Origin: Elusimicrobia bacterium CG1_02_37_114 | GTDB lineage: Bacteria; Elusimicrobiota; Endomicrobiia; CG1-02-37-114 | DNA: 64,000 nucleotides | NCBI GenBank assembly: GCA_001871125.1 | Contig: MNXB01000117.1 | Location: 5,654 to 69,653, forward strand | Direction of reading: 5' to 3' | In this document: positions 5,171 through 60,678 of the stretch, one piece after another | Layout of the letters: each line of letters starts with the position of its first letter | Position numbering within the stretch: the first letter of the stretch is position 1 | Notes under the pieces: generated by a model | Databases searched by the model: none | What the model was told of the DNA's origin: nothing | What the model saw: the letters and a program-made list of their open reading frames with translations, nothing else | Position numbers and translations under genes: made by a program

Positions 5171-5200
5171 ATCTAATTTATCCGCAGGATTATCTTATTT

Positions 5201-6490
5201 ATGCAGAAATATCTTTTTGCCGGTGAAAACAAAGCGGGTAGTTTAGAACAGCCTCTGGCCGCAAAATTCGTTCCGGATAACCTTGACGGTTTCTATGGCC
5301 AGGAACACATTGTAGACAGGGACAGGTTATTGAACCGTGCAATTTTGTCTGACAGAGTCGGTTCTATAATATTTTTTGGACCTTCAGGGACAGGCAAAAC
5401 CGCACTGGCAAAGATTATTTCAAAGCACACTAAATCTTATTTCATTGAAACAAATGCCGTTATTATCGGTGTTGCTGATATAAAGAAAATTGTTGAACAG
5501 GCAGAGGTAAGACAGAAAGCATATAATCAGAGGACAATACTTCTGCTGGACGAAATCCATCACTTTAACCGCACCCAGCAGGATGCATTACTGCCCTATG
5601 TAGAGAAAGGCGTAATAAGCATGATTGGGATAACCACTGAAAATCCTTATTTCTATATAAACTCTGCACTTATTTCCAGGTCACTGGTGTTTGAATTCAA
5701 GCCACTGGCGGATGAATCTATTAGAAAAATAATAATTTCTGTATTAAACGATAAAGAAAGAGGGCTTGGTAAATACAGTGTAAAAATTACAGAAGATGCC
5801 GTAGAGCATATTATCAAATATTCAAACGGTGATGCCAGGAAAGCACTTAATGCAGTTGAAATAGGTGTGCTGACCACACCTCCTGACAGGGTCGGGAATA
5901 TAAATTTTGATTTGAAAACTGCAGAGGAATCAATACAGCATAAATCAGTCGTGTATGATAAATCCGGAGACGGGCATTACGACCATATATCTGCATTTAT
6001 AAAGTCAATCCGGGGCAGTGACCCCGACGCAGCGCTTTACTGGTTGACAAAAATGCTTGATGCGGGTGAAGACCCTAAATTTATTGCAAGACGTATCGTT
6101 ATTGCGGCAAGCGAGGATGTAGGGAATGCTGACCCCAATGCTCTCAACGTAGCCGTCTCAGCACTTCAATCAGTTGAATTTGTCGGTATGCCGGAAGCAA
6201 AAATTCCTTTAGCTCAGGCGTGCCTATACGTCTCCTGCGCACCAAAATCAAATGCTGTGTATAATGCTCTGTCTTCTGCTGAAGAAGAAGTGCAGAAGGG
6301 AAAGACACGGTCTGTGCCCGAGCATCTCAAGGATTCAAATGAGAGGTATTTATATCCTCATAATTACCCCGGACATTTCATTCCGCAGGAGTATATGCCG
6401 GAACATAAGATTTTCTACAAGCCGACTGAGCAGGGCTTTGAGGAAGAGATAAAAAAACGGTTAGAGCAATGGCGAAAGAAACAGGTTTAA
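5201..6490 (+). CDS. rarA: replication-associated recombination protein A (AAA+ ATPase RarA/MgsA)
   Basis: Walker A GPSGTGKT, Walker B LLLDEIHHFN, MgsA C-terminal domain. Confidence 0.9.
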   Translation: MQKYLFAGENKAGSLEQPLAAKFVPDNLDGFYGQEHIVDRDRLLNRAILSDRVGSIIFFGPSGTGKTALAKIISKHTKSYFIETNAVIIGVADIKKIVEQAEVRQKAYNQRTILLLDEIHHFNRTQQDALLPYVEKGVISMIGITTENPYFYINSALISRSLVFEFKPLADESIRKIIISVLNDKERGLGKYSVKITEDAVEHIIKYSNGDARKALNAVEIGVLTTPPDRVGNINFDLKTAEESIQHKSVVYDKSGDGHYDHISAFIKSIRGSDPDAALYWLTKMLDAGEDPKFIARRIVIAASEDVGNADPNALNVAVSALQSVEFVGMPEAKIPLAQACLYVSCAPKSNAVYNALSSAEEEVQKGKTRSVPEHLKDSNERYLYPHNYPGHFIPQEYMPEHKIFYKPTEQGFEEEIKKRLEQWRKKQV

Positions 6491-10613: not shown

Positions 10614-10812
10614 GTTTGAAACCGCGCTGGAAAGGTTAGAAGAGATTGTAGAACAACTTGAATCTGGAGAAACGGGTTTGGATGATTCGCTGAAACTCTT
10701 TGAAGAATCAATGGAACTTGTAAAAACCTGTGACGAAAAACTTAAGGAAGTAAAGAAAAAAATTGAAATACTCTCAAAGAAAGGTGAAAAACTGACACCC
10801 GAACCTCTGTAG
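10597..10812 (+). CDS. xseB: exodeoxyribonuclease VII small subunit
   Basis: 71-aa helical protein (FETALERLEEIVEQLESGE..LDDSLKLFEE), overlapping xseA. Confidence 0.9.
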   Translation: MKKEIKFETALERLEEIVEQLESGETGLDDSLKLFEESMELVKTCDEKLKEVKKKIEILSKKGEKLTPEPL

Positions 10813-10815
10813 CGT

Positions 10816-10861
10816 CCTCAACAAGTTGAGGATTCCCTTTGGAATCCCGAACTTGTTCGGG
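10816..10861. repeat. compound palindromic element (two hairpins CCTCAAC-AAG-TTGAGG and CCCGAAC-TTG-TTCGGG around GGATTCC..GGAATCC); likely terminator
   Basis: Perfect nested inverted repeats read directly. The same hairpin motifs form the ends of the 24.0 kb and 44.1 kb repeat elements. Confidence 0.6.
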
Positions 10862-10866
10862 TTTTC

Positions 10867-11727
10867 TTGATTATCACAATGGACAATTTAAATAAATATC
10901 TCAATTACTGGAAAAAAAGGATTGACTCTGCTTTAAAAAGATATCTGGCAAGCAGTGATAACCTGTCTGAAGTTATATATAAAGCAATAAGATATGCTGT
11001 ATTCCCCGGAGGCAAGAGGTTCAGGCCGATACTTACGGTCACCTCTGCGGAAATATGCGGTATTGACCCGAATAAGGTCTTACCAACTGCCTGTGCAGTT
11101 GAGTTAATCCACAGTTATTCACTTGTTCATGACGATTTACCTTCTATGGACAATGACGATTACCGTCGTGACAAACTGACTGTTCACAGGAAGTTCAACG
11201 AGGGTATGGCAATACTCACCGGCGATGCCCTGCTTACAAAAGCATTTGAACTTATTGCGGAAAATAGTAAGATTACCGGTATAAGCGAGAAGAAAATTGT
11301 TGAAGTCATAAAAATCGTATCCAACGCATCGGGTGCAGATGGAATGGTCGGAGGGCAGGTGGCAGATACATTCCTGGTTAGTAAAACCCATACAGATAAA
11401 CTTGTTAATTATATCCATTCACACAAAACTGCTGCATTGATAAAAGCAAGTGTCCTGGCAGGCGCTGTGCTTGCGGGTGGTTCAGAAAAAGAAATCAATG
11501 CACTGAAAAATTATGGTGAGAAAATCGGGTTCGCATTTCAGATTGCCGATGATATGTTTGATGTTAAAAAAGACAGGGTCAATTATTCAGATATCTATGG
11601 GACAAAAAAATCGGAAAGAGATACAAACAGACTCATAGATGAGGCGAAGAAATCTTTAGAAGTATTCGGCAGTAAAAAAGAAATACTTTCCCTCCTTGCA
11701 GATTATGTGGTTACCCGAAAAAATTAA
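10867..11727 (+). CDS. ispA: polyprenyl diphosphate synthase (farnesyl/geranylgeranyl diphosphate synthase)
   Basis: FARM LVHDDLPSMDNDDYRR and SARM FQIADD. Classic xseAB-ispA order. Confidence 0.85.
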   Translation: MIITMDNLNKYLNYWKKRIDSALKRYLASSDNLSEVIYKAIRYAVFPGGKRFRPILTVTSAEICGIDPNKVLPTACAVELIHSYSLVHDDLPSMDNDDYRRDKLTVHRKFNEGMAILTGDALLTKAFELIAENSKITGISEKKIVEVIKIVSNASGADGMVGGQVADTFLVSKTHTDKLVNYIHSHKTAALIKASVLAGAVLAGGSEKEINALKNYGEKIGFAFQIADDMFDVKKDRVNYSDIYGTKKSERDTNRLIDEAKKSLEVFGSKKEILSLLADYVVTRKN

Positions 11728-24003: not shown

Positions 24004-24203
24004 TGGTTCTTCTGGTTTTATTGTAGAACAATATTTATGTTAATTTATTTATTGTTAACGGATTCTTATCCAAGCAAGTCTGAGTGCACAGACTTTGTCG
24101 CAACCGGATCCCCCAACTTGTTGGGGCTAAAAAATAACAAAATAAATCAAAACATGACAAACCTTGATAGTACTACCCGAACAAGTTCGGGATTCCAATG
24201 GTC
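24004..24203. repeat. about 200-bp intergenic repeat element, copy 1 (module A plus hairpin-ended module B)
   Basis: About 90 bp are near-identical to 44059-44150. The remaining about 110 bp are the reverse complement of 44151-44253. Confidence 0.6.
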
Positions 24204-25205: not shown

Positions 25206-26570
25206 TTAAAAAATCCATTCAGAAGGAGAAGATTTATCTTTGAGTGTGTTTTTAATTTTCTCTCTATATTTCGGTACTAACGATAATTCGTTGTTATCAA
25301 TTTTGTCTTTCAATGATATAAGAGACTTTATCACTTCACGGGTTACTCTTTCATCGCTGTCACCGGCGAGGTTAAAAAGTATATCAAGGGTTTCCGGTTT
25401 GGCAATTTTTTCCAGTGCACGGACTACATTTGCTCTTATACCGACGTTTGGGTTATTAATCATTTCATTGAGAAAATTTAATGCAGTTTCTGGTGAATGT
25501 TTATATATATTATAGGCATGTGTGGCAATGCGGTCTCTTGCCTGTTCCAGAGTCGGTTGTAGGCCATAGACGCTCTTATCCGGCTCGGACTTTTCAGCTA
25601 ACCGCTGTAATTTTTCTTTTTGCTGTTCAGTAAGTAGTTTTTCTGTGCCTCTCTCAAATTCAAGTTCCTTTTTCAGTTTTTCATGTCCTTTGGAAAGATT
25701 TATCCTCAAAGTCTTTTCAAAATCAGCTCTCTGGTTGGCAAAGGAGATTTCGCTGATAATGCGAGTTTTTTCAAGTTCGTCCTGATGTATTTTTTTTGAC
25801 AAGTCCATCAATTCGGTTTCTTTTTTCTTAATTATATTTTTTAACCTTTTTGTGGTCATTAACAAACCTGATATGAGCAGAATAGAAAAGGCGGATACTA
25901 TTGTTACAAAAGTTTTGTATTTATTTAGTTTGTCTTTAACTCCCTGAATTTCAATCAGTATTTTCTCATTTTCCTGTTTTTGGGCCGATGTTTCCCTCAC
26001 TCTAATTGTCTTTACTTTTTGAGTTTCATCTGTTTTTTGGGATTTTTCTATAGTGCTCTGTTCAATGTGGGTATCCAGTTTTTTTGCTGGAGGATCAGGT
26101 TCCCTATCTATTTTAAATTTATCGGGTATTTCAAGCCTTTGCCTGGTGTCTGATTTTGTATCCTTCTTGCGCTCGGGATTAAGGATTTCATTGGTTATGC
26201 GGTATAATTCTTTCACCTCGTAATTGTTGGGCGCAATTTTCAGAGATTTGTTGATAAATTTCATTGATTCGAGATATTCATGTTTGGCATTATAATATTT
26301 CCCCGCCTCAATAAGTATTTTCAGTAAAAACTGTTTTGCCTGTGCGTTTTCCGGCTGTATTTCCAGCGCCTTTTCAAGGTTTTCTGTTGATTTTGCGTAA
26401 TCACCCTGAAGATATTTTTCTGTGGCGGCATTGAAATACATATCAAACTGTTCGGACGGTTCTGCAGAATATAAATAAGATAATCCTACGGATAAACAGG
26501 GATTTAAAAGCGATAAGGTAACCAGAAGCAATACAATAATAAACGGACTGTCCCGATGTCCTTTAATCAT
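25206..26570 (-). CDS. membrane-anchored TPR / HEAT-repeat protein
   Basis: Signal peptide, N-terminal TPR, one TM helix, coiled coil, C-terminal HEAT/PBS-lyase-like repeats. Confidence 0.6.
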   Translation of the reverse strand: MIKGHRDSPFIIVLLLVTLSLLNPCLSVGLSYLYSAEPSEQFDMYFNAATEKYLQGDYAKSTENLEKALEIQPENAQAKQFLLKILIEAGKYYNAKHEYLESMKFINKSLKIAPNNYEVKELYRITNEILNPERKKDTKSDTRQRLEIPDKFKIDREPDPPAKKLDTHIEQSTIEKSQKTDETQKVKTIRVRETSAQKQENEKILIEIQGVKDKLNKYKTFVTIVSAFSILLISGLLMTTKRLKNIIKKKETELMDLSKKIHQDELEKTRIISEISFANQRADFEKTLRINLSKGHEKLKKELEFERGTEKLLTEQQKEKLQRLAEKSEPDKSVYGLQPTLEQARDRIATHAYNIYKHSPETALNFLNEMINNPNVGIRANVVRALEKIAKPETLDILFNLAGDSDERVTREVIKSLISLKDKIDNNELSLVPKYREKIKNTLKDKSSPSEWIF

Positions 26571-28048: not shown

Positions 28049-28419
28049 AATAAATTTTCAATTTTTTCCTTTAGTAACCTTATCGGAAAAGGTTTCTCAA
28101 GATATGCCGAAATATTGACATTTTCTTTTAATTGCAGTAAATCCTTTAATCCTCCTCTGCCAGTCATAACAACAACGGGGATATTTGCAGTTTCCGGGTT
28201 TTTCTTAAGCTGAATGTTCAAAGAATGCCCGTCAAGTTTCGGCAACATTATGTCTAAAACAATAAGGTCAGGTTTTTCTTCATTTATTTTATCCAGAGCC
28301 TCCATCCCATCAAATGCAGCAGTTACTGTCCACCCGTCTCTTTCCAGAGCTATTTTTAAAGTTTCAACTATGTCCCTTTCGTCTTCAACGATTAAAATTT
28401 TACTCACGCTACCTCCCAT
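28036..28419 (-). CDS. single-domain response regulator (REC)
   Basis: ILIVEDERD...DLIVLDIMLPKLDG...K. Confidence 0.85.
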   Translation of the reverse strand: MGGSVSKILIVEDERDIVETLKIALERDGWTVTAAFDGMEALDKINEEKPDLIVLDIMLPKLDGHSLNIQLKKNPETANIPVVVMTGRGGLKDLLQLKENVNISAYLEKPFPIRLLKEKIENLLWGK

Positions 28420-28423
28420 TAAT

Positions 28424-28466
28424 CCCCCTTGCTTCCCCCTTTGTTAAAGGGGGATTGAGGAGGATT
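28424..28466. repeat. palindromic mini-repeat (CCCCCTTTGTTAAAGGGGG core)
   Basis: Hairpin between the Kelch gene stop and the REC gene start. A near-identical copy lies inside the HK gene at 36035-36075. Confidence 0.5.
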
Positions 28467-28474
28467 TTTAAAAT

Positions 28475-44058: not shown

Positions 44059-44253
44059 TGGTTCTTCAGGTTTTATTGTAGAACAATATTTATGTTAATT
44101 TATTGTTAACGGATTCTTATCCAAGCAAGTCTGAGTACACAGACTGTGTCATAATCCCATTGGAATCCCGAACTTGTTCGGGTAGTACTATCAAGTTTTG
44201 TCATGTTTTGATTTATTTTGTTATTTTTTAGCCCCAACAAGTTGGGGAATCCG
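44059..44253. repeat. about 200-bp intergenic repeat element, copy 2 (module A direct, module B inverted relative to copy 1)
   Basis: See 24004-24203. Internal inverted repeats TGTGTCAT...ATGACACA flank module B. Confidence 0.6.
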
Positions 44254-53717: not shown

Positions 53718-54686
53718 TTATCCTTCCTTTCTAAAAATCAGTATGTTTTGATGAATCATTGAAGGAATAAAAGTGGAAGGATACCCATAAACATGGAGTG
53801 ATTTGCTTACATCATACCAAATAAGATTTGCTTTTAGTACTAAGTTAGGATTTTTTATTATATTTGATAATTCCGCACCTAACAAATGATATTCATTTCC
53901 TCTATACATATCACCAATAAAAATTGCTAAATATTTTTTATTTTTGAGAACCCTTTGGCATTCTTCAAATATTTTTTTCATCTCTTCAAGCCATTCTTCT
54001 TTTGTTTGAATATGGGAACCATTAAATTGTGATAAATTAGATTGCTTTATTCGTTTACTTCTCGTCTGTTCCAACTTATCCATATGCCAGTATGGAATAT
54101 CCGTTAGAATGAAATCAAAGAAATTATCTTGAAATTTATTTATTTCTGTTTTACAATCTCCCTCGATTATTTCCTGTTCCTGTATTTTTTCTAACTTACA
54201 TACTTCTTTATAGATTTTTATCCATTTAGGATTAATATCAATCCCAATTGCTTTTCTGTTACATAGTGATGCTCCGAGTAAAGTTCCACCAACCCCCATT
54301 AGAGGATCAAAGACAATTGCATTTTCTTTAGTAAAAGTTTTTATTAGGTCAGCGCAGAGTTCGGGAGGTTTTTGTCCACCATGTTGCTTACGAAGACCAT
54401 GTTGCAGGTTAAGAGAATAAACTTTGTTAATCACTGATTTTGTTGCAAATTTCCATTCTCTTCCCGTTAGATCATTCAATTTATTATTTTTAGTATATAA
54501 TCCGCGTGCTCCCAAATCAATAGTTTTAAATTTTCTGTCTTTATTAATATTTATATCTTTTTTAGTTGAGTTTAAAAATAAATTAGGGAATAAATATTCG
54601 TTAGAACTTTCTCTGATTAAATATTTTTTATCAGCGTTTTGTAGTCTATTTGATTTTAAATGATTTTTTAATGTACTTTTTCTCAT
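53718..54686 (-). CDS. DNA methyltransferase, beta class (N4-C/N6-A, PF01555-like)
   Basis: AdoMet motif FDPLMGVGGT. Catalytic motif unusually DIPYW (FILTDIPYWHM). Confidence 0.8.
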   Translation of the reverse strand: MRKSTLKNHLKSNRLQNADKKYLIRESSNEYLFPNLFLNSTKKDININKDRKFKTIDLGARGLYTKNNKLNDLTGREWKFATKSVINKVYSLNLQHGLRKQHGGQKPPELCADLIKTFTKENAIVFDPLMGVGGTLLGASLCNRKAIGIDINPKWIKIYKEVCKLEKIQEQEIIEGDCKTEINKFQDNFFDFILTDIPYWHMDKLEQTRSKRIKQSNLSQFNGSHIQTKEEWLEEMKKIFEECQRVLKNKKYLAIFIGDMYRGNEYHLLGAELSNIIKNPNLVLKANLIWYDVSKSLHVYGYPSTFIPSMIHQNILIFRKEG

Positions 54687-54900
54687 TTTGTTTTATATTA
54701 CTATTTTTTCGTTGAAAATAGTGACATCTTTCTGCTAAATCGGATATTTTTTTAGCTTCCTTTAGATTTAAAATAGATTCTTTCAATAAAGATTCAACCT
54801 GAACGAAACCGACCTTCTTTTCTCTTAATTTACCATCATTTATTAGTTTTTTAATTAAATTAGATAATCCTGCGGATAAATTACTCAGGTTTTCCTGCAT
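54646..54900 (-). CDS. small basic/helical protein, partner of the HTH-nucleotidyltransferase
   Basis: 84 aa, overlaps both flanking genes. No canonical HEPN Rx4-6H motif. Confidence 0.35.
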   Translation of the reverse strand: MQENLSNLSAGLSNLIKKLINDGKLREKKVGFVQVESLLKESILNLKEAKKISDLAERCHYFQRKNSNIKQNEKKYIKKSFKIK

Positions 54901-55453
54901 TCAGTTGTCCTTTCAATAATAAGATTTTATCTTTAATTATCATATCTAAAAATCCACCTGATTTCTTTCTTTCGTTTTCAAATTCTTTTTCGGTGTAAGT
55001 AGTAAAATTAATTTCTCTATTCAATTCTTTTTCTAAATTATTGATTTTCTCTAAGAATTTATCCTGATTAATATTTCCAATTACTATTAAGTCAATATCA
55101 GAAGTTCTCTTCTCTTTGTTTTTTGTATAGGAACCGTAGATAAAAGCTAATACAATATCTTTGAACTGATTAAGCATTTCTTTCAATTGCCCCCCCACTC
55201 CTTCTGTTTTGAATATTATTATCTTTATTTCCTTATAAAGAGGATATTTTTTGTTTAAGGAATAAAATTTTAAATCACCTCTTCTATGCGAAACATAGAT
55301 TCCTTCTTTCTCAAATTTTTTTAATTCTCTTGAAAGATTGCCTGCATCCATGCCTATAAGGTTCGCAAGTTCCCTTACATAATAACTTTCATCCGGGTGC
55401 GTAAATGAATAAGTTAAAAGCTTTTTTCTAAGCTTATTTTCTAATAAAATCAT
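54881..55453 (-). CDS. wHTH + minimal nucleotidyltransferase (MNT-like) protein
   Basis: wHTH (VRELANLIGMDAGNLSRELKKFEKEG) and NTase motif FIYGSYTKNKEKRTSDIDLIV. Confidence 0.7.
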   Translation of the reverse strand: MILLENKLRKKLLTYSFTHPDESYYVRELANLIGMDAGNLSRELKKFEKEGIYVSHRRGDLKFYSLNKKYPLYKEIKIIIFKTEGVGGQLKEMLNQFKDIVLAFIYGSYTKNKEKRTSDIDLIVIGNINQDKFLEKINNLEKELNREINFTTYTEKEFENERKKSGGFLDMIIKDKILLLKGQLNAGKPE

Positions 55454-55541: not shown

Positions 55542-56330
55542 TTATTTTCTTCTGTAAGCATCAAGGAAAGAATCGCAATAAATGTTTTTGCCAAGTAAAA
55601 GTTCGGCGGTTATCATAGCATCTACCAGGTCCTTATCAAGCGGGTTAACTATGGCAGCATCAAGACCGCTTGCAAGTGCCATTACAAGGAAAGTCCGGTC
55701 TATAAGTGAACGGTAGTTTGTTCCCTGTGATACGTTTGATAACCCGAGTATGGTTTTTGGCGGCGGGTCACACAGAAGTGGACACTGTTTCAGAGCCTCA
55801 AGAACTGCGGCTGAATGCTCCATAGCAACATTGACGGGCAGTATTACCGGGTCTATGTATAAACCAGAAGTATCTATCCCGTGTTCCATTACTTTTGCTA
55901 CAATATTTGCCGCTATTTCAACCCTGCCTTCCGGAGTTATCGGTATACCTGTTTTGTTTATCGTAAGAGCAATTATTTTTGTATTATATTTCTTTGCTAA
56001 CGGCAGAAATTTGTCCATTTTTTCTTCTTCACCGTTTATTGAATTCAGGAATGCCCCTTCTCCTGAAAGTTCAAGTCCTTTGTCCATAACGTCTAATTTT
56101 GTTGTGTCTATCGCAAGCGGTACGTTTGTGACTTCACGGATTGTTTCTATCATCCACTGCATATCCTTCAGCGGTTCAGATGAGGCGGGTCCCACATTTA
56201 CGTCCAGGACACCCGCGCTTGCCTCAAGTTGTTTTTTTGCAATGTCCTGCAGGATTGATTTATTTTTTGTCTGGATTGCTTCACGGACATTTTTAAACAT
56301 TCCATTAATCTTTTCTCCAATGATAAGCAT
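55542..56330 (-). CDS. acsE: methyltetrahydrofolate:corrinoid Fe-S protein methyltransferase (pterin-binding, AcsE/MtrH-like)
   Basis: Pterin-binding TIM barrel (IIGEKINGMFKNV...GVLDVNVG, GLSNVSQG). Confidence 0.8.
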   Translation of the reverse strand: MLIIGEKINGMFKNVREAIQTKNKSILQDIAKKQLEASAGVLDVNVGPASSEPLKDMQWMIETIREVTNVPLAIDTTKLDVMDKGLELSGEGAFLNSINGEEEKMDKFLPLAKKYNTKIIALTINKTGIPITPEGRVEIAANIVAKVMEHGIDTSGLYIDPVILPVNVAMEHSAAVLEALKQCPLLCDPPPKTILGLSNVSQGTNYRSLIDRTFLVMALASGLDAAIVNPLDKDLVDAMITAELLLGKNIYCDSFLDAYRRK

Positions 56331-56343
56331 GCTGCCTCCTTTT

Positions 56344-56428
56344 CGTCCTGATGAATCAGGACGCTACATTTTATGATAAATCAAGACGCTACATTTTATG
56401 ATAAATCAAGACGCTACATTTTAAACTC
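56344..56428. repeat. hairpin CGTCCTGAT-GAA-TCAGGACG followed by a 3x tandem 25-bp repeat (CARGACGCTACATTTTATGATAAAT) in the acsE leader
   Basis: Read directly. On the minus strand the hairpin is followed by AAAAGGAGG-N6-ATG(acsE). Confidence 0.5.
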
Positions 56429-56433
56429 TAATG

Positions 56434-57396
56434 TCAAGGCCTGACCCCCGTCATTAATTGTTTTATTGTCTGTTTTATAATCTTTATAGATTCGGGATGT
56501 ACTAAAACCAGAATATCCGAGCCTGCCTGGAGGTATCCCGCGGCACAGGTTACTTCCCATCCGACAGCACGGCTATGAAGTTCTCCCCATGTAGGTTGTT
56601 CGTCTTTTGAAGCTTTTGCTTCTTTTATTTTCCATGTTTCTTCAGCAATCATATTTATTATCGGTGTTGCTACAACTTTATCACCCGTCAAACCCGCCAG
56701 CCTGCATCTTTCCATTATTGAATAACAATATTCAAATCCATAGCCCAGCCCGCCTGTAGTATGATGCATAACTATCCGTTCAACCGGCAATCCCATATCA
56801 GAAATCAATATGTTGAGTTGTTTTGCTAAATTTATGTCCAGTGGAGTTTCTGCAATGACACTGTGGTCATTTGCAAGTGCCGCTGCAGTAATTGTTTTAT
56901 AATTATCTTTAGTAGCCATGCCTAAAAGAATTTTCTCTCCTTTGGTCATCTCAGCCACTTTTGGAAGTATCTCCTGGTCTTTTTCAGGATGATTGCATCC
57001 TATAACAATCAGCGGGAGGCTGACAGTTTTCAAAACTTTACTGACTAATTCCCCGGCATATTCCACTGAATTATTTTTACCGTCAGGATGACAGGAGTCA
57101 AGTTTCAGACAGAGCAAATCAGCGCCCCATTCTTCACACTTTTTTGCCCATCTAAGGGTATCGTTGATAAAGTTCTTAAATTCCTCAATAATAAAAGGCC
57201 AGTGTTCGGGAGGCGTATCACACACTTCTGCAGCAACTAGCGGAGGATTAGGCATCTGCCCTTCAAAATGCAGGAATGGTAATGTAGTTTCACCACCGAT
57301 TTTTATAACCTTGCTTCTGCTACCACCCTCAGAACTTACCGACCCTATTGATAATTCAGCTATTTTACCCGTCCATTTCTCAATTACTTTTTCCAT
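56434..57396 (-). CDS. acsD: corrinoid iron-sulfur protein small subunit (CdhD/AcsD)
   Basis: AcsD TIM-barrel family (DLLCLKLDSCHPDG, IVIGCNHPEKD). Confidence 0.8.
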   Translation of the reverse strand: MEKVIEKWTGKIAELSIGSVSSEGGSRSKVIKIGGETTLPFLHFEGQMPNPPLVAAEVCDTPPEHWPFIIEEFKNFINDTLRWAKKCEEWGADLLCLKLDSCHPDGKNNSVEYAGELVSKVLKTVSLPLIVIGCNHPEKDQEILPKVAEMTKGEKILLGMATKDNYKTITAAALANDHSVIAETPLDINLAKQLNILISDMGLPVERIVMHHTTGGLGYGFEYCYSIMERCRLAGLTGDKVVATPIINMIAEETWKIKEAKASKDEQPTWGELHSRAVGWEVTCAAGYLQAGSDILVLVHPESIKIIKQTIKQLMTGVRP

Positions 57397-57410: not shown

Positions 57411-59228
57411 TTAAATCCCCAATTTTCTCTTTACCGTGGGAAATAGTTCAATGTCCGTATGCGGTAAAAACAATGTTGACGTATATTCATTCATAAATTT
57501 CGGATTCGTGGACAAGTCTATATAAGTCATTTTACCTACAATCTCTTTTGCCTTCTCTCTTGCGGATTTTGAAAGGAGACATATTTTTGCACCTGCTACT
57601 GAAGAATTACCAATGAAACTGAATTTCTCATCGGGTAAGTCAGGCAACAGTCCAATCAGAATCGCCTTTCCGATATCAAGGGCAGTGCCGAAACCACCTG
57701 AAATGTATATCCTGTCAATATCTTCAAATTTTAGTTTCATTTCCTGTAATAAAACCTGCATGCCCAGAAAGACAGCTCCTTTTGAACGTAATAGTGTTGC
57801 AATATCAGATTCTGTTATTACTATGTGGCTATCTTTATCAGAAACAATTACAAATTCATATTCGTCATCTTCATTTTTTCTTAAACGGTTACTCTTAACT
57901 GATTCTTTCCTGAATTTACCTGAACGGTCAATTATGGAATTTCTCAGCAGTTCAGCAGGTATATCTATCAGCCCGGAACCGCATATACCTTTTGGCTTTT
58001 TGTTATTGATAGTAGAAACAGTAACTTCACCGTTGTCAATCTTAATACTTTGTATTGCACCGTCTATTGCACTTATTCCGCACTTTATTCCCACTCCTTC
58101 AAAGGCAGGCCCCGCAGAGCAGGAACACCCTACAAGCCAGTCACTGTTGCCGAGAACAATTTCTCCGTTTGTGCCCAGGTCAACAAGTAAAGATGCTTTT
58201 TCTACCCTATCCATACCGCTTGCCAGGACACCGGCTGTTATGTCACCGCCTAAATAAGATGCTACCCCGGGCAGGCAGGAAATTGTCCCTCTCGGGTTAA
58301 TTTTTATATTGAGTTCTTCTGCATTTATCACTGGCGGAAAATTAACCACAGGTATGTAGGGTTCTTTTCTTATATATTCAGGATTTATACCCAAGAACAA
58401 ATGTATCATTGTAGTATTACCTGCAGACTGAACAGCAAGAATATCGTTTTGTGAAATACCGCTTTTTTCAACTAATGCGGCAATCAGGTCATTAATGGTA
58501 TTACATATCATCTGGCTAAGTTTCTTCAATCCTTTTTTCTCTGTGGAATACATTATCCGGGTTATAACATCCTGGCCCAGGGAGATTTGCTGATTATAGG
58601 TCGCTTCTGCACAATGGACTTTACCGCTGTCTAAATTCACCAGGTATGCAACGACCGTGGTAGTCCCTATATCAAGTGCAATCCCGTAAATATCCTTTGA
58701 CCTGTCACCCGGTTCAAATTGTACGAATTCGTATCCACCGTCAGATTCCACTAAGCTTGCGGTAAAGTCCCATTCAACCTTTCTCAAAAAATGAGGCAGC
58801 GCTTTTAACAACGACAGGCCGATTTTCAGGTTTGATATGGATAATTTTTCTTCAAGTTTACTCTTTAGACGTTCGTAATCAGGTATGTTATTTTCAAGTG
58901 AAGGTTGGACAAGCTTTAAGTGAACTTTTTTTGCGAGTGGCTGGTATGCAAAAACACTTTCCTGCGTTTGCTCCGCAGTATCTATGAGTGCGTGTATTTC
59001 TTCTATTCTTGAACTATACGGTATTTCAATTACTAAGTCATCCGTAACATTTGTCTGACAACTCAATACATAACCGTTTTTGATAATAACTTTACATTTT
59101 CCACAGGTTCCATTGCCACCACAATCTGAATTAATATATATACCAGCGTCGGTTATGGCAGACAATAGGTCAGTATTATCTTTAACTTTAATTTCTATGT
59201 CATCAGGAAGTATTTTTACGGTATGCAT
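57411..59228 (-). CDS. acsV: corrinoid activation/regeneration protein (RACo/AcsV): 2Fe-2S ferredoxin + ASKHA ATPase
   Basis: N-terminal CGGNGTCGKC...C plant-type ferredoxin and a DUF4445 ASKHA core. Confidence 0.8.
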   Translation of the reverse strand: MHTVKILPDDIEIKVKDNTDLLSAITDAGIYINSDCGGNGTCGKCKVIIKNGYVLSCQTNVTDDLVIEIPYSSRIEEIHALIDTAEQTQESVFAYQPLAKKVHLKLVQPSLENNIPDYERLKSKLEEKLSISNLKIGLSLLKALPHFLRKVEWDFTASLVESDGGYEFVQFEPGDRSKDIYGIALDIGTTTVVAYLVNLDSGKVHCAEATYNQQISLGQDVITRIMYSTEKKGLKKLSQMICNTINDLIAALVEKSGISQNDILAVQSAGNTTMIHLFLGINPEYIRKEPYIPVVNFPPVINAEELNIKINPRGTISCLPGVASYLGGDITAGVLASGMDRVEKASLLVDLGTNGEIVLGNSDWLVGCSCSAGPAFEGVGIKCGISAIDGAIQSIKIDNGEVTVSTINNKKPKGICGSGLIDIPAELLRNSIIDRSGKFRKESVKSNRLRKNEDDEYEFVIVSDKDSHIVITESDIATLLRSKGAVFLGMQVLLQEMKLKFEDIDRIYISGGFGTALDIGKAILIGLLPDLPDEKFSFIGNSSVAGAKICLLSKSAREKAKEIVGKMTYIDLSTNPKFMNEYTSTLFLPHTDIELFPTVKRKLGI

Positions 59229-59319: not shown

Positions 59320-60678
59320 CTACAACCATATTGAGCGCAGAAATTTAGGTATTCCCGATGCTTCTCTGGAACCCACAAGGACTTCCCATCCGGAAAGTTC
59401 ATTGAGTTTGCCACTCATAACAGCAACATAGCCGGGAATTATAAGTTTCCTGTGTTCTACAATATTCTCAATGTTTGCTTTTTTCATTGCATCAACAATT
59501 TTTTCCGGTGTAAATTTCTCTGCTGCCCAGGCAGTGAGTACTGAAAGACCGTCGGTATCAACAACCACAAGCCAGGAAGGTATTTTTGAATTGATTATTT
59601 CAGGTTCTATAGTAAAATAGGTGAGAGAAAAATTTGTTGTTATGAGAACCGGCGATTTATTATCGGGAGTACCGCCTATAGAGTAGAGTTTTGGTTGGAC
59701 GGTGACGGGTTTTTGTGGGTCGGCATAGATATTCTGCCTCAGGGTTACCATTGCCAGAAATTGCCAGTCAACCGGCTCCGGCACAATAACTATGCTTGCA
59801 TACTTGGCTATAAAAGTAGCCCCGCAGGTTAGAGCGTCGCAGTTATTCTCACCCTGCTTAGCAGAGCAGAAAACAATTGTCGGGTAACCTAATGGACGAT
59901 AATTTTTTCTTAATGCCAGTCGCCGCACCTGAGTGAGATTTTCCAGACAGCTGTTTATGTCAGGATTGGATAAATCCAGTACAATCTCACGAAACCCCAT
60001 GTCAGTAATTTTTTGTGTGACCGCAGCAATTTCATCCAGGTCTTTCCCGGTAACAAGCAGTCCCGCGTTATTTGTCCTGGCAAGATTGGTCATTGACTCA
60101 TAGTTTCCGGTGTTAGCGGGTCCCACTACGGGTCGCCTGTCCTTTAGAGTACTCAATGCTTTTTCAAGAGTTGTTATATTATTGCTCAGTAGAATCAGTA
60201 AAGAATCACTACTTAATGTATTTATTTCATTTAATGCATCTATAAATTTTGTCTCACTATCAGAATCGTTTTTAAGCGCAATAAATTCTGCTCTGACTTT
60301 CTGGCCGACACGGTCAAAAACAAGTTTATTAAATAAACTAACTTTATTTTTAATTTCCCCTCCTGGCACTGACAGATTATCACTTAAAAGTATTCCTGTC
60401 CCGCACTTATGATAAAAAGTTTTTTCATGCCGGAACAAAACAGTTTCTCCGCCGATAGAAATTTTGTTTTCACCGGAGCCGATTGTAACTGTCCTTATTG
60501 GTGGCTCGCTTGCACTTTCAAGTATTTGTTTTGTTTCCTCTGTTACATCCGGGCATTTATCAAGAGAGACTTTTTTTGTAGCCAAGGCCATTGCAAACGC
60601 CAGACAGGTAGGGAACCCGCACTTTTTACAATTTGTTTTTGGTAGAAGTTTGTAAATATCAAGTCCTGTAAGAGCCAT
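59320..60678 (-). CDS. acsC: corrinoid iron-sulfur protein large subunit (CdhE/AcsC)
   Basis: N-terminal [4Fe-4S] motif CKKCGFPTCLAFAMALA..CP. TIM barrel and B12-binding C-terminus. Confidence 0.85.
   Translation of the reverse strand: MALTGLDIYKLLPKTNCKKCGFPTCLAFAMALATKKVSLDKCPDVTEETKQILESASEPPIRTVTIGSGENKISIGGETVLFRHEKTFYHKCGTGILLSDNLSVPGGEIKNKVSLFNKLVFDRVGQKVRAEFIALKNDSDSETKFIDALNEINTLSSDSLLILLSNNITTLEKALSTLKDRRPVVGPANTGNYESMTNLARTNNAGLLVTGKDLDEIAAVTQKITDMGFREIVLDLSNPDINSCLENLTQVRRLALRKNYRPLGYPTIVFCSAKQGENNCDALTCGATFIAKYASIVIVPEPVDWQFLAMVTLRQNIYADPQKPVTVQPKLYSIGGTPDNKSPVLITTNFSLTYFTIEPEIINSKIPSWLVVVDTDGLSVLTAWAAEKFTPEKIVDAMKKANIENIVEHRKLIIPGYVAVMSGKLNELSGWEVLVGSREASGIPKFLRSIWL

Follow-up and report, generated by a model that had tools for sequence, protein, structure and literature searches.

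In E. coli, REP stem-loops (REP, repetitive extragenic palindrome) stabilise the mRNA of operons, malE-malF being an example. A large superfamily of REPs is tagged by the tetranucleotide GTAG; in the accessible text of the survey that describes it (Di Nocera, De Gregorio and Rocco 2013, PMC3733652), its members, which include SMAG of Stenotrophomonas maltophilia, have stems of 6-13 bp, very short loops that are often TY and complementary changes between sub-families. The same text places these elements predominantly in the spaces that separate unidirectional or convergent ORFs. It adds that their GTAG end often serves as a TAG stop codon, that tandem reiteration is frequent, and that the genes of the REP-associated tyrosine transposase (RAYT) are flanked by repeats. 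Group 3 REPs are short perfect palindromes, and in this group the Marinomonas REP-Mb has a TTTA loop of which the outer bases pair (PMC8266576). Cleavage takes place at a C-T junction beside the hairpin on single-stranded DNA (Corneloup et al., PMC8266576), and the biochemistry of REP binding and cleavage has been done for the systems of E. coli, Stenotrophomonas and Marinomonas (PMC8266576).

The window, that is the whole stretch of 64,000 nucleotides analysed here, carries inside an acs operon a hairpin and a tandem array that, with a probability of about 0.8, are a GTAG-type REP, a small selfish palindromic repeat, that has been amplified locally at acsE. Every structural point that the accessible text of PMC3733652 gives for the superfamily is found here. 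Like the REPs of that text, the copies in the window lie between unidirectional ORFs, supply a TAG stop codon (for xseB) and are reiterated in tandem; unlike them, the tandem units are truncated half-copies and not whole REPs or dimers, and the stem, CGTCCYGAT, has no counterpart among the families which that portion of the text describes. The host also sets the element apart, since the Elusimicrobiota are mentioned neither in the accessible text of PMC3733652 nor in PMC8266576, and a literature search returned no paper pairing this phylum with repetitive extragenic palindromes. A GTAG-type REP family, together with a candidate cognate RAYT subfamily, is thus documented for Elusimicrobiota and further uncultured lineages, from which repeats of this sort seem to be new.

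In common with the group 3 REPtrons (Stenotrophomonas REP-Sm and Marinomonas REP-Mb), there is a short perfect palindrome beside GTAG, with a TTTA loop as in REP-Mb, and in relatives a predicted 157-aa HUH/Y1 protein whose gene is flanked by inverted GTAG hairpins. The REP-Mb stem has 5 bp and is separated from GTAG by 2 nt, whereas the stem in the window has 9 bp and is directly adjacent. As for the malE-malF REPs, the hairpins of the window are positioned between the genes of operons and are predicted to be transcribed with them. In other genomes the hairpin is paired with a second one ending in CGCTAC(A), as in REPINs (Bertels and Rainey 2011, PMC3116915), but the copies in the window are singletons or a head-to-tail truncated array and not inverted doublets.

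The genes and repeat units at the acsE site are the following.

55542-56330, minus strand: acsE, methyltetrahydrofolate:corrinoid/Fe-S protein methyltransferase (Pfam Pterin_bind, 2.9e-21).
56331-56433, minus strand: the acsD-acsE gap of 103 nt that holds the array, between the acsD stop codon TGA (56436-56434) and the acsE ATG (56330-56328).
56434-57396, minus strand: acsD, small subunit of the corrinoid Fe-S protein (Pfam CdhD, 1.3e-39).
57411-59228, minus strand: RACo, corrinoid activator (Pfam).
59320-60678, minus strand: acsC (Pfam).
56344-56368, minus strand: complete copy of the element taken to be a REP, TGTAG + CGTCCTGAT-TC-ATCAGGACG (sequence, perfect 9-bp inverted repeat, RNA fold).
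56364-56367 and 56344-56363, minus strand: the GTAG head (56367-56364) and the hairpin (56363-56344) of this complete copy.
56374-56423, minus strand: two identical truncated 25-nt units TAAAATGTAGCGTCTTGATTTATCA (56423-56399 and 56398-56374; tandem array, no fold).

The homologues of AcsE are annotated as 5-methyltetrahydrofolate corrinoid/iron sulfur protein methyltransferase. The array fills the gap between two genes of one operon, and it is therefore not a promoter leader, although the first-pass annotation had presented it as the leader of acsE. Read on the minus strand from the acsD stop codon, the gap has the sequence cattagagtt-[TAAAATGTAGCGTCTTGATTTATCA]x2-[TAAAATGTAGCGTCCTGATTCATCA]-GGACGAAAAGGAGGcagcATG. 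The period-25 array at 56349-56423 (3.0 copies, 96% matches, score 136) is the top-scoring tandem array that Tandem Repeats Finder reports for the whole 64-kb window, and a repeat search of the site gives three 25-nt copies with identities of 100/92/92%. The three tandem units reported earlier are thus present as 3 x 25 nt in the register TAAAATGTAGCGTCYTGATTYATCA, but in the register in which they had been written there are two full units and a 17/25 partial one. In the 3 x 25 register, the repeated segment begins 6 nt ahead of GTAG, and its last base is base 4 of the 3' arm. Each truncated unit TAAAATGTAGCGTCTTGATTTATCA has the 5' flank, the GTAG head, the 5' arm, the loop and just 4 nt of the 3' arm. 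The units abut, with a period equal to the unit length and no unique spacers, unlike a CRISPR array.

The end of the array that is distal to the promoter overlaps the hairpin at 56344-56363, where CGTCCTGAT and ATCAGGACG form a perfect inverted repeat of 9 bp (100% complementary), as had been noted earlier. The palindrome is completed solely in this acsE-proximal unit. As RNA, the complete element is predicted to fold with -12.7 kcal/mol (z -4.7; 0/200 shuffles as stable), whereas an upstream 25-nt unit folded alone gives 0 kcal/mol, the other upstream unit being identical in sequence. Relative to the complete unit (56373-56349), the truncated units carry two C-to-T changes, of which one is in the loop and the other at a stem position left without a partner in these distal units. 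The complete copy stops 2 nt short of the acsE Shine-Dalgarno sequence AAGGAGG (56341-56335); the strong GGAGG of the earlier description is there, and its spacer to the ATG is 4 nt (CAGC) and not N6.

The exact AcsE protein is present on many metagenomic contigs. When five of these contigs are compared, the acsD-acsE gap is identical to that of the window in three, and in two (L001 and L005) it is one 25-nt unit shorter, all other bases of the aligned 160 nt being identical, so that the copy number is polymorphic (2 or 3) among near-identical strains, with the limit that both 2-unit alleles come from one set of assemblies and an assembly artefact is possible. The 2-unit allele consists of one T-type and one C-type unit. 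For annotation, the array could be used as a strain-variable marker within the acs operon. The closest AcsE homologues are from metagenome-assembled genomes of Elusimicrobiota (79-66% identity). Four of these relatives (AcsE 71-79% identical) have ackA between acsD and acsE, and what precedes acsE in them bears no relation to the sequence of the window. Such a lack of conservation in orthologous leaders had been named earlier as grounds for refuting the regulatory element. One relative (L053) has a different, independent GTAG hairpin in its ackA-acsE gap, and another (L054) has GTAG-ATCCCGATTTATCGGGAT elsewhere. Judged by this comparison of sequences, the element at the acsE site is not a conserved leader.

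The surroundings differ as well. Unlike in the four Elusimicrobiota relatives, the acs cluster of the window has no acetate kinase gene between acsD and acsE, and after acsE there are a nucleotidyltransferase/HTH gene, a small ORF and an N6/N4 DNA methylase gene (53718-55453), none of which is found downstream of acsE in the relatives. Gene order indicates that the acs neighbourhood (53718-55453 and 56331-56433) is rearranged relative to these four genomes.

Two further copies of the element are found in the window.

37146-37170, minus strand: second complete copy, TGTAG + CGTCCCGAT-TT-ATCGGGACG (sequence, stem search, RNA fold).
10808-10832, plus strand: weaker, probable third copy, TGTAGCG + TCCTCAAC-AA-GTTGAGGA (hairpin -9.2 kcal/mol, z -2.7).

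The hairpin CGTCCCGATAAATCGGGACGCTACAT at 37146-37171 is near-identical to the acsE copy, and a compensatory change in the stem, from C:G to T:A, separates the two. The transcribed strand reads TGTAG-CGTCCYGAT-TY-ATCRGGACG-A at both sites. A 26-nt consensus of both sites matches exactly these two places (0 expected, 100 shuffles), and GGACGCTACAT, with at most one mismatch, has 6 matches in the window versus 0.45 expected. The second copy occupies a 70-nt gap, with a response regulator gene at 37202-37786 on one side and a histidine kinase gene, starting from ATG 37131, on the other; its RNA hairpin has a predicted stability of -14.2 kcal/mol (z -4.4; 0/200 shuffles as stable). It ends 14 nt before this ATG, instead of the 13 nt given in the first-pass annotation for what is otherwise correctly described as the same type of hairpin, and 5 nt before the TTG start that is implied by a 447-aa database protein. 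The regulator-kinase gap is of equal length in 5 strain contigs, by comparison of lengths. The search for orthologues of the kinase, aimed at the conservation of this second site, finds, besides an identical protein, only matches to the kinase core with 55-65% coverage.

The TAG in the head of the third copy (10810-10812) doubles as the xseB stop codon. Since one exact 9-mer match could well arise by chance, this copy is rated no higher than probable. TGTAG precedes the hairpin at each of the three sites (56368-56364, 37170-37166 and 10808-10812), and the related copies outside the window all share this head. Each of the three is oriented in the direction of transcription and is flanked by co-directional genes, with a start codon a short way downstream. 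The 64-kb window thus has two complete copies, one variant and two truncated units, all of which are intergenic. For the gap between xseB and ispA (10795-10885), the minimum-energy RNA fold that is predicted (z -2.3) joins AACAAGUU, from the first hairpin, to AACUUGUU, from the third, around a central GGAUUCC hairpin and with a UUUU end; the local and the long-range folds are alternatives.

The window also contains six copies of a second palindromic family, CCCSAAYWWRTTSGGG, most often tagged on one flank by GGAWT/AWTCC.

10846-10861, 24111-24126, 24176-24191, 37177-37192, 44167-44182 and 44232-44247: copies of the CCCSAAYWWRTTSGGG family.

One of these lies 6 nt from the REP of the kinase site and another adjoins the REP-like hairpin of xseB, so that both of these gaps are almost wholly made up of small palindromes.

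The general anatomy of the element is recognised well beyond the window: a TGTAG head, immediately after it a perfect palindrome of 9 bp centred on TTYA, and then a CGA tail. The stem can be described as 9 bp with a 2-nt loop, or as 8 bp and TTYA. When one genome per species is scanned with the pattern TGTAGCGTCCYGAT-N2-6-ATCRGGA, the 23-25-mer turns up at 45 loci, which belong to some 30 metagenome-assembled genomes from many phyla, compared with approximately 5 by chance (an estimate for equal base frequencies). In most of the matches, the variable pair is complementary and the stem is extended by CG, and many, such as the loci of Dehalococcoidia and Acidobacteriota, are followed by another hairpin with the inverted head CGCTAC(A) at its end. 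Three alphaproteobacterial matches share long flanks, which suggests that they are probably a conserved gene instead.

The element is repeated in two genomes of Elusimicrobiota, CG06_land and JAZDKR01, the G+C content being 37% in CG06_land and 37.6% in the window. Two contigs of Elusimicrobia CG06, each of about 7 kb, have 15 and 16 GTAGCG heads; the window is far sparser. In a survey of the window and five Elusimicrobiota loci (CG06_land, JAZDKR01), 42 GTAGCGT heads were chosen regardless of the sequence downstream, and for 27 of the 42 the bases that come next form 8 or more of 9 pairs, in a fixed 9+2+9 geometry. These 27 complete copies have 10 different, fully compensated arms, and their centre is TTTA in 23 and TTCA in 3. 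The family format (TGTAG, 9-bp stem, TTYA centre) is unusually uniform. A constant head and a constant geometry combined with freely varying but compensated stems are the properties of a repeat that is recognised by its structure and not of a sequence-specific operator. Within the related genomes, copies of the element point either way, are densely clustered and adjoin unrelated genes. The element is very probably recognised by a protein, for which a RAYT transposase that works on single-stranded DNA is a more plausible candidate than a transcription factor.

In seven cases, at the loci L017, L020, L026 and L039, a complete copy is immediately preceded on its 5' side by a truncated head of 12-14 nt, which consists of GTAG and the 5' arm and stops within the loop or at its edge, and for several of these the arm is unlike that of the adjoining complete copy. 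Arrays of such heads (GTAGCGTCC + 3-5 nt) are located at 2032-2058 of L026, 6949-6961 of L017, 2112-2138 and 5606-5620 of L020, and 2035-2049 of L039. Orphan GGACGA tails are present a few bases downstream of some of these arrays.

A candidate for the cognate transposase is found by a motif screen (HUH and Y..NP) over the ORFs of the first 50 loci, which matches one ORF only, at L015 in JAZDKR01, a genome that also has three of the REP loci. When trimmed to its ATG, the encoded protein has 157 residues; it matches Pfam Y1_Tnp (1.2e-7) and passes narrowly, with 81 bits at a cut-off of 80, the NCBIfam model of the REP-associated tyrosine transposase. One of its homologues is named RayT by JGI, and aligning the protein with its homologues shows no variation at the two histidines of the HUH motif or at the tyrosine. 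The gene is flanked, in inverted orientation, by GTAG-TGAAGGGTC-TTTA-GACCCTTCA and GTAG-C-ACGGGGTC-TTTA-GACCCCGT, and the same inverted GTAG hairpin flanks are preserved at its closer relatives, L135 and L136 (37.5% G+C). These two loci also have a second, larger Y1_Tnp gene (219 aa; 394-1053 in L135 and 544-1203 in L136), at about 3 kb from the 157-aa RAYT.

When metagenomes are scanned with the RAYT alignment, 80 loci are obtained, 73 of which have GTAG and a perfect stem of 6-13 bp in the fetched DNA. The stems at these 73 loci are mostly of 8-10 bp, with CTTTAG or CTTCAG as the usual centre, and the distance between hairpin and gene is in general no more than a few hundred bases; in many cases inverted hairpins flank the gene on either side. 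One of the loci, L127, carries GTAGCGTCCGCCTTCAGGCGGACG, which has the head, the first stem bases, the loop type and the tail in common with the element of the window; it is the only RAYT locus with the CGTCC...GGACG type of stem, the other RAYTs being flanked by different stem subtypes.

With the profile of the 157-aa subfamily, no RAYT is found in the 64-kb window, as is to be expected when there is one RAYT per genome; the profile recovers just L015 and a 95-aa fragment at 3537-3821 of L039 (E 2e-9), which is from the same genome as L015 and is possibly a decayed second copy of RAYT. No transposase is found with Pfam among the nine ORFs beside the dense REP clusters of L017 and L020. It is proposed from the sequence relationships, with less confidence than the assignment to the REPs itself, that the element of the window would have been mobilised by a RAYT in its own organism.

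The following sequence of events could have generated the observed arrangement. As a REP, the element would be non-autonomous, and its hairpin and GTAG would be recognised and cut on single-stranded DNA by an HUH/Y1 transposase (RAYT, TnpA-REP), the putative single-stranded target here being TGTAGCGTCCYGATTYATCRGGACG. RAYT would spread the copies into short intergenic spaces, and two complete copies would have landed in the window, one between acsD and acsE and one between the regulator and the kinase. Next to acsE, the 25-nt segment would then have been duplicated locally, in two duplications. The first would have copied everything from the 5' flank through the head, the 5' arm and the loop, plus 4 nt of the 3' arm. 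The two C-to-T substitutions would have occurred in the copy freed from pairing, and a second, recent duplication of the substituted copy would still be segregating among strains. Slipped-strand mispairing at the hairpin would be sufficient for the acsE array. Simple slippage cannot produce those truncated heads of several loci of the relatives where the truncated arm differs from that of the complete copy. It has been considered that truncated heads are footprints of the spread of REPs, left by RAYT-mediated insertion into the loop or arm of a resident REP or by abortive strand transfer, which is a quite doubtful proposal. If it were true, the arrays would be a natural record of the mechanism of REP dissemination, and the polymorphic acsE array would be a currently active site. 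The recurrence of truncated-head arrays could inform how REPs multiply.

It is possible, although unlikely, that the hairpin, having originated from a REP, now acts at the RNA level, which is compatible with the REP origin. The stem-loop would then shield the message of the upstream genes (acsC-RACo-acsD, or the regulator) from 3'-exonucleases, or set the translation of acsE or of the kinase, and the outcome would be a tuned stoichiometry within the operon. Such a role is in agreement with the predicted stability of both hairpins (-12.7 and -14.2 kcal/mol) and with the placement of the three copies in the window, which are sense-oriented in co-directional gaps at 2-14 nt from the next ribosome-binding site or start. 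This shared orientation and position before a start codon is also a pattern that a purely selfish REP need not show, on a sample of three copies; in the related genomes, both orientations occur. The equal length of the regulator-kinase gap in the 5 strain contigs fits an RNA-level role too, but at the acsE site the element is unconserved across relatives, even though L053 has its independent GTAG hairpin in the ackA-acsE gap. Many GTAG REPs are argued, in the accessible text of PMC3733652, to be transcribed and maybe functional as RNA. No Rfam family is matched, as the whole window gives three tRNA genes only at the gathering score and the region 56200-56550 gives no match at E <= 1, and the fold of the whole 121-nt gap is no better than that of shuffles (z -1.5), for which reason no larger leader structure is proposed. 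What is plausible from the predicted folds, given that the transcribed hairpins would be at 2 nt from the acsE ribosome-binding site and at 14 nt from the kinase start, is an incidental effect: as REPs co-transcribed with the operons, they may block 3'-exonucleases or affect the translation of the next gene. Nothing points to a dedicated regulatory role for acsE or the kinase.

A cis-regulatory role common to the two sites, through which the C1 and kinase operons would be co-regulated by an operator of iterated 25-bp sites or by a leader RNA, is very improbable. This interpretation was put forward in the first-pass annotation on the grounds that one motif is found upstream of two genes and that the tandem array resembles iterated sites. 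It is right that the same non-random element is present at both, in the same orientation and with a compensatory stem change, but a shared regulatory leader is not supported, as both sites are gaps between co-directional genes and not promoter regions, and the motif belongs to a family with many stem variants that are found beside unrelated genes. The suggestion of iterated binding sites is not supported either, because the extra units are truncated and unstructured and the total of 25-nt units is 2 or 3 between contigs with 100% identical flanks; this polymorphism, together with the lack of conservation at orthologous loci and the lack of an Rfam match, argues against both the operator and the leader RNA. 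A weak sigma-70-like match (9/12) does lie within the array on the sense strand, but it is one of 12 promoter-like matches to this stretch, against 5.8 +/- 2.4 in shuffles, all of them weak matches to the consensus. A false lead is hereby removed, as the motif does not tie C1 metabolism to signalling via a common regulator. Even less credible is an intrinsic terminator or attenuator between acsD and acsE. The hairpin is G+C-rich, and a scan calls the plus strand, which is antisense to the genes, terminator-like, but on the sense strand the hairpin is followed by AAAAGGAGG, which has no U tract. The T run is confined to the antisense strand, where there is no convergent gene upstream, and the terminator was rejected for this confinement. 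The interpretation as a GTAG-type REP is preferred over these alternatives.

Other repeats are also seen in the window. The regions 24004-24201 and 44059-44253, 20 kb apart, form a two-part repeat. Its first part, of about 96 nt, is in direct orientation with 95-98% identity, whereas the second, 97 nt between two inverted hairpins of the CCCSAAYWWRTTSGGG family, is reverse-complemented between the copies (98% complementary). From this arrangement, it looks like a REPIN/MITE-like doublet inserted either way, or an invertible segment. A dispersed repeat of 26-28 nt, TTTATCCGCAGGATTATCTTATTTA, is present at 5174-5201, 26471-26496 and 54856-54883 with about 96% identity; one copy ends at the ATG of the ORF that starts from 5201, and the others overlap the starts or ends of minus-strand ORFs. 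A 53-nt repeat of 75% identity, centred on the hairpin TCCCCCTTTRTTAAAGGGGGA, is located at 28417-28469 and 36018-36070, at the ends of two minus-strand genes.
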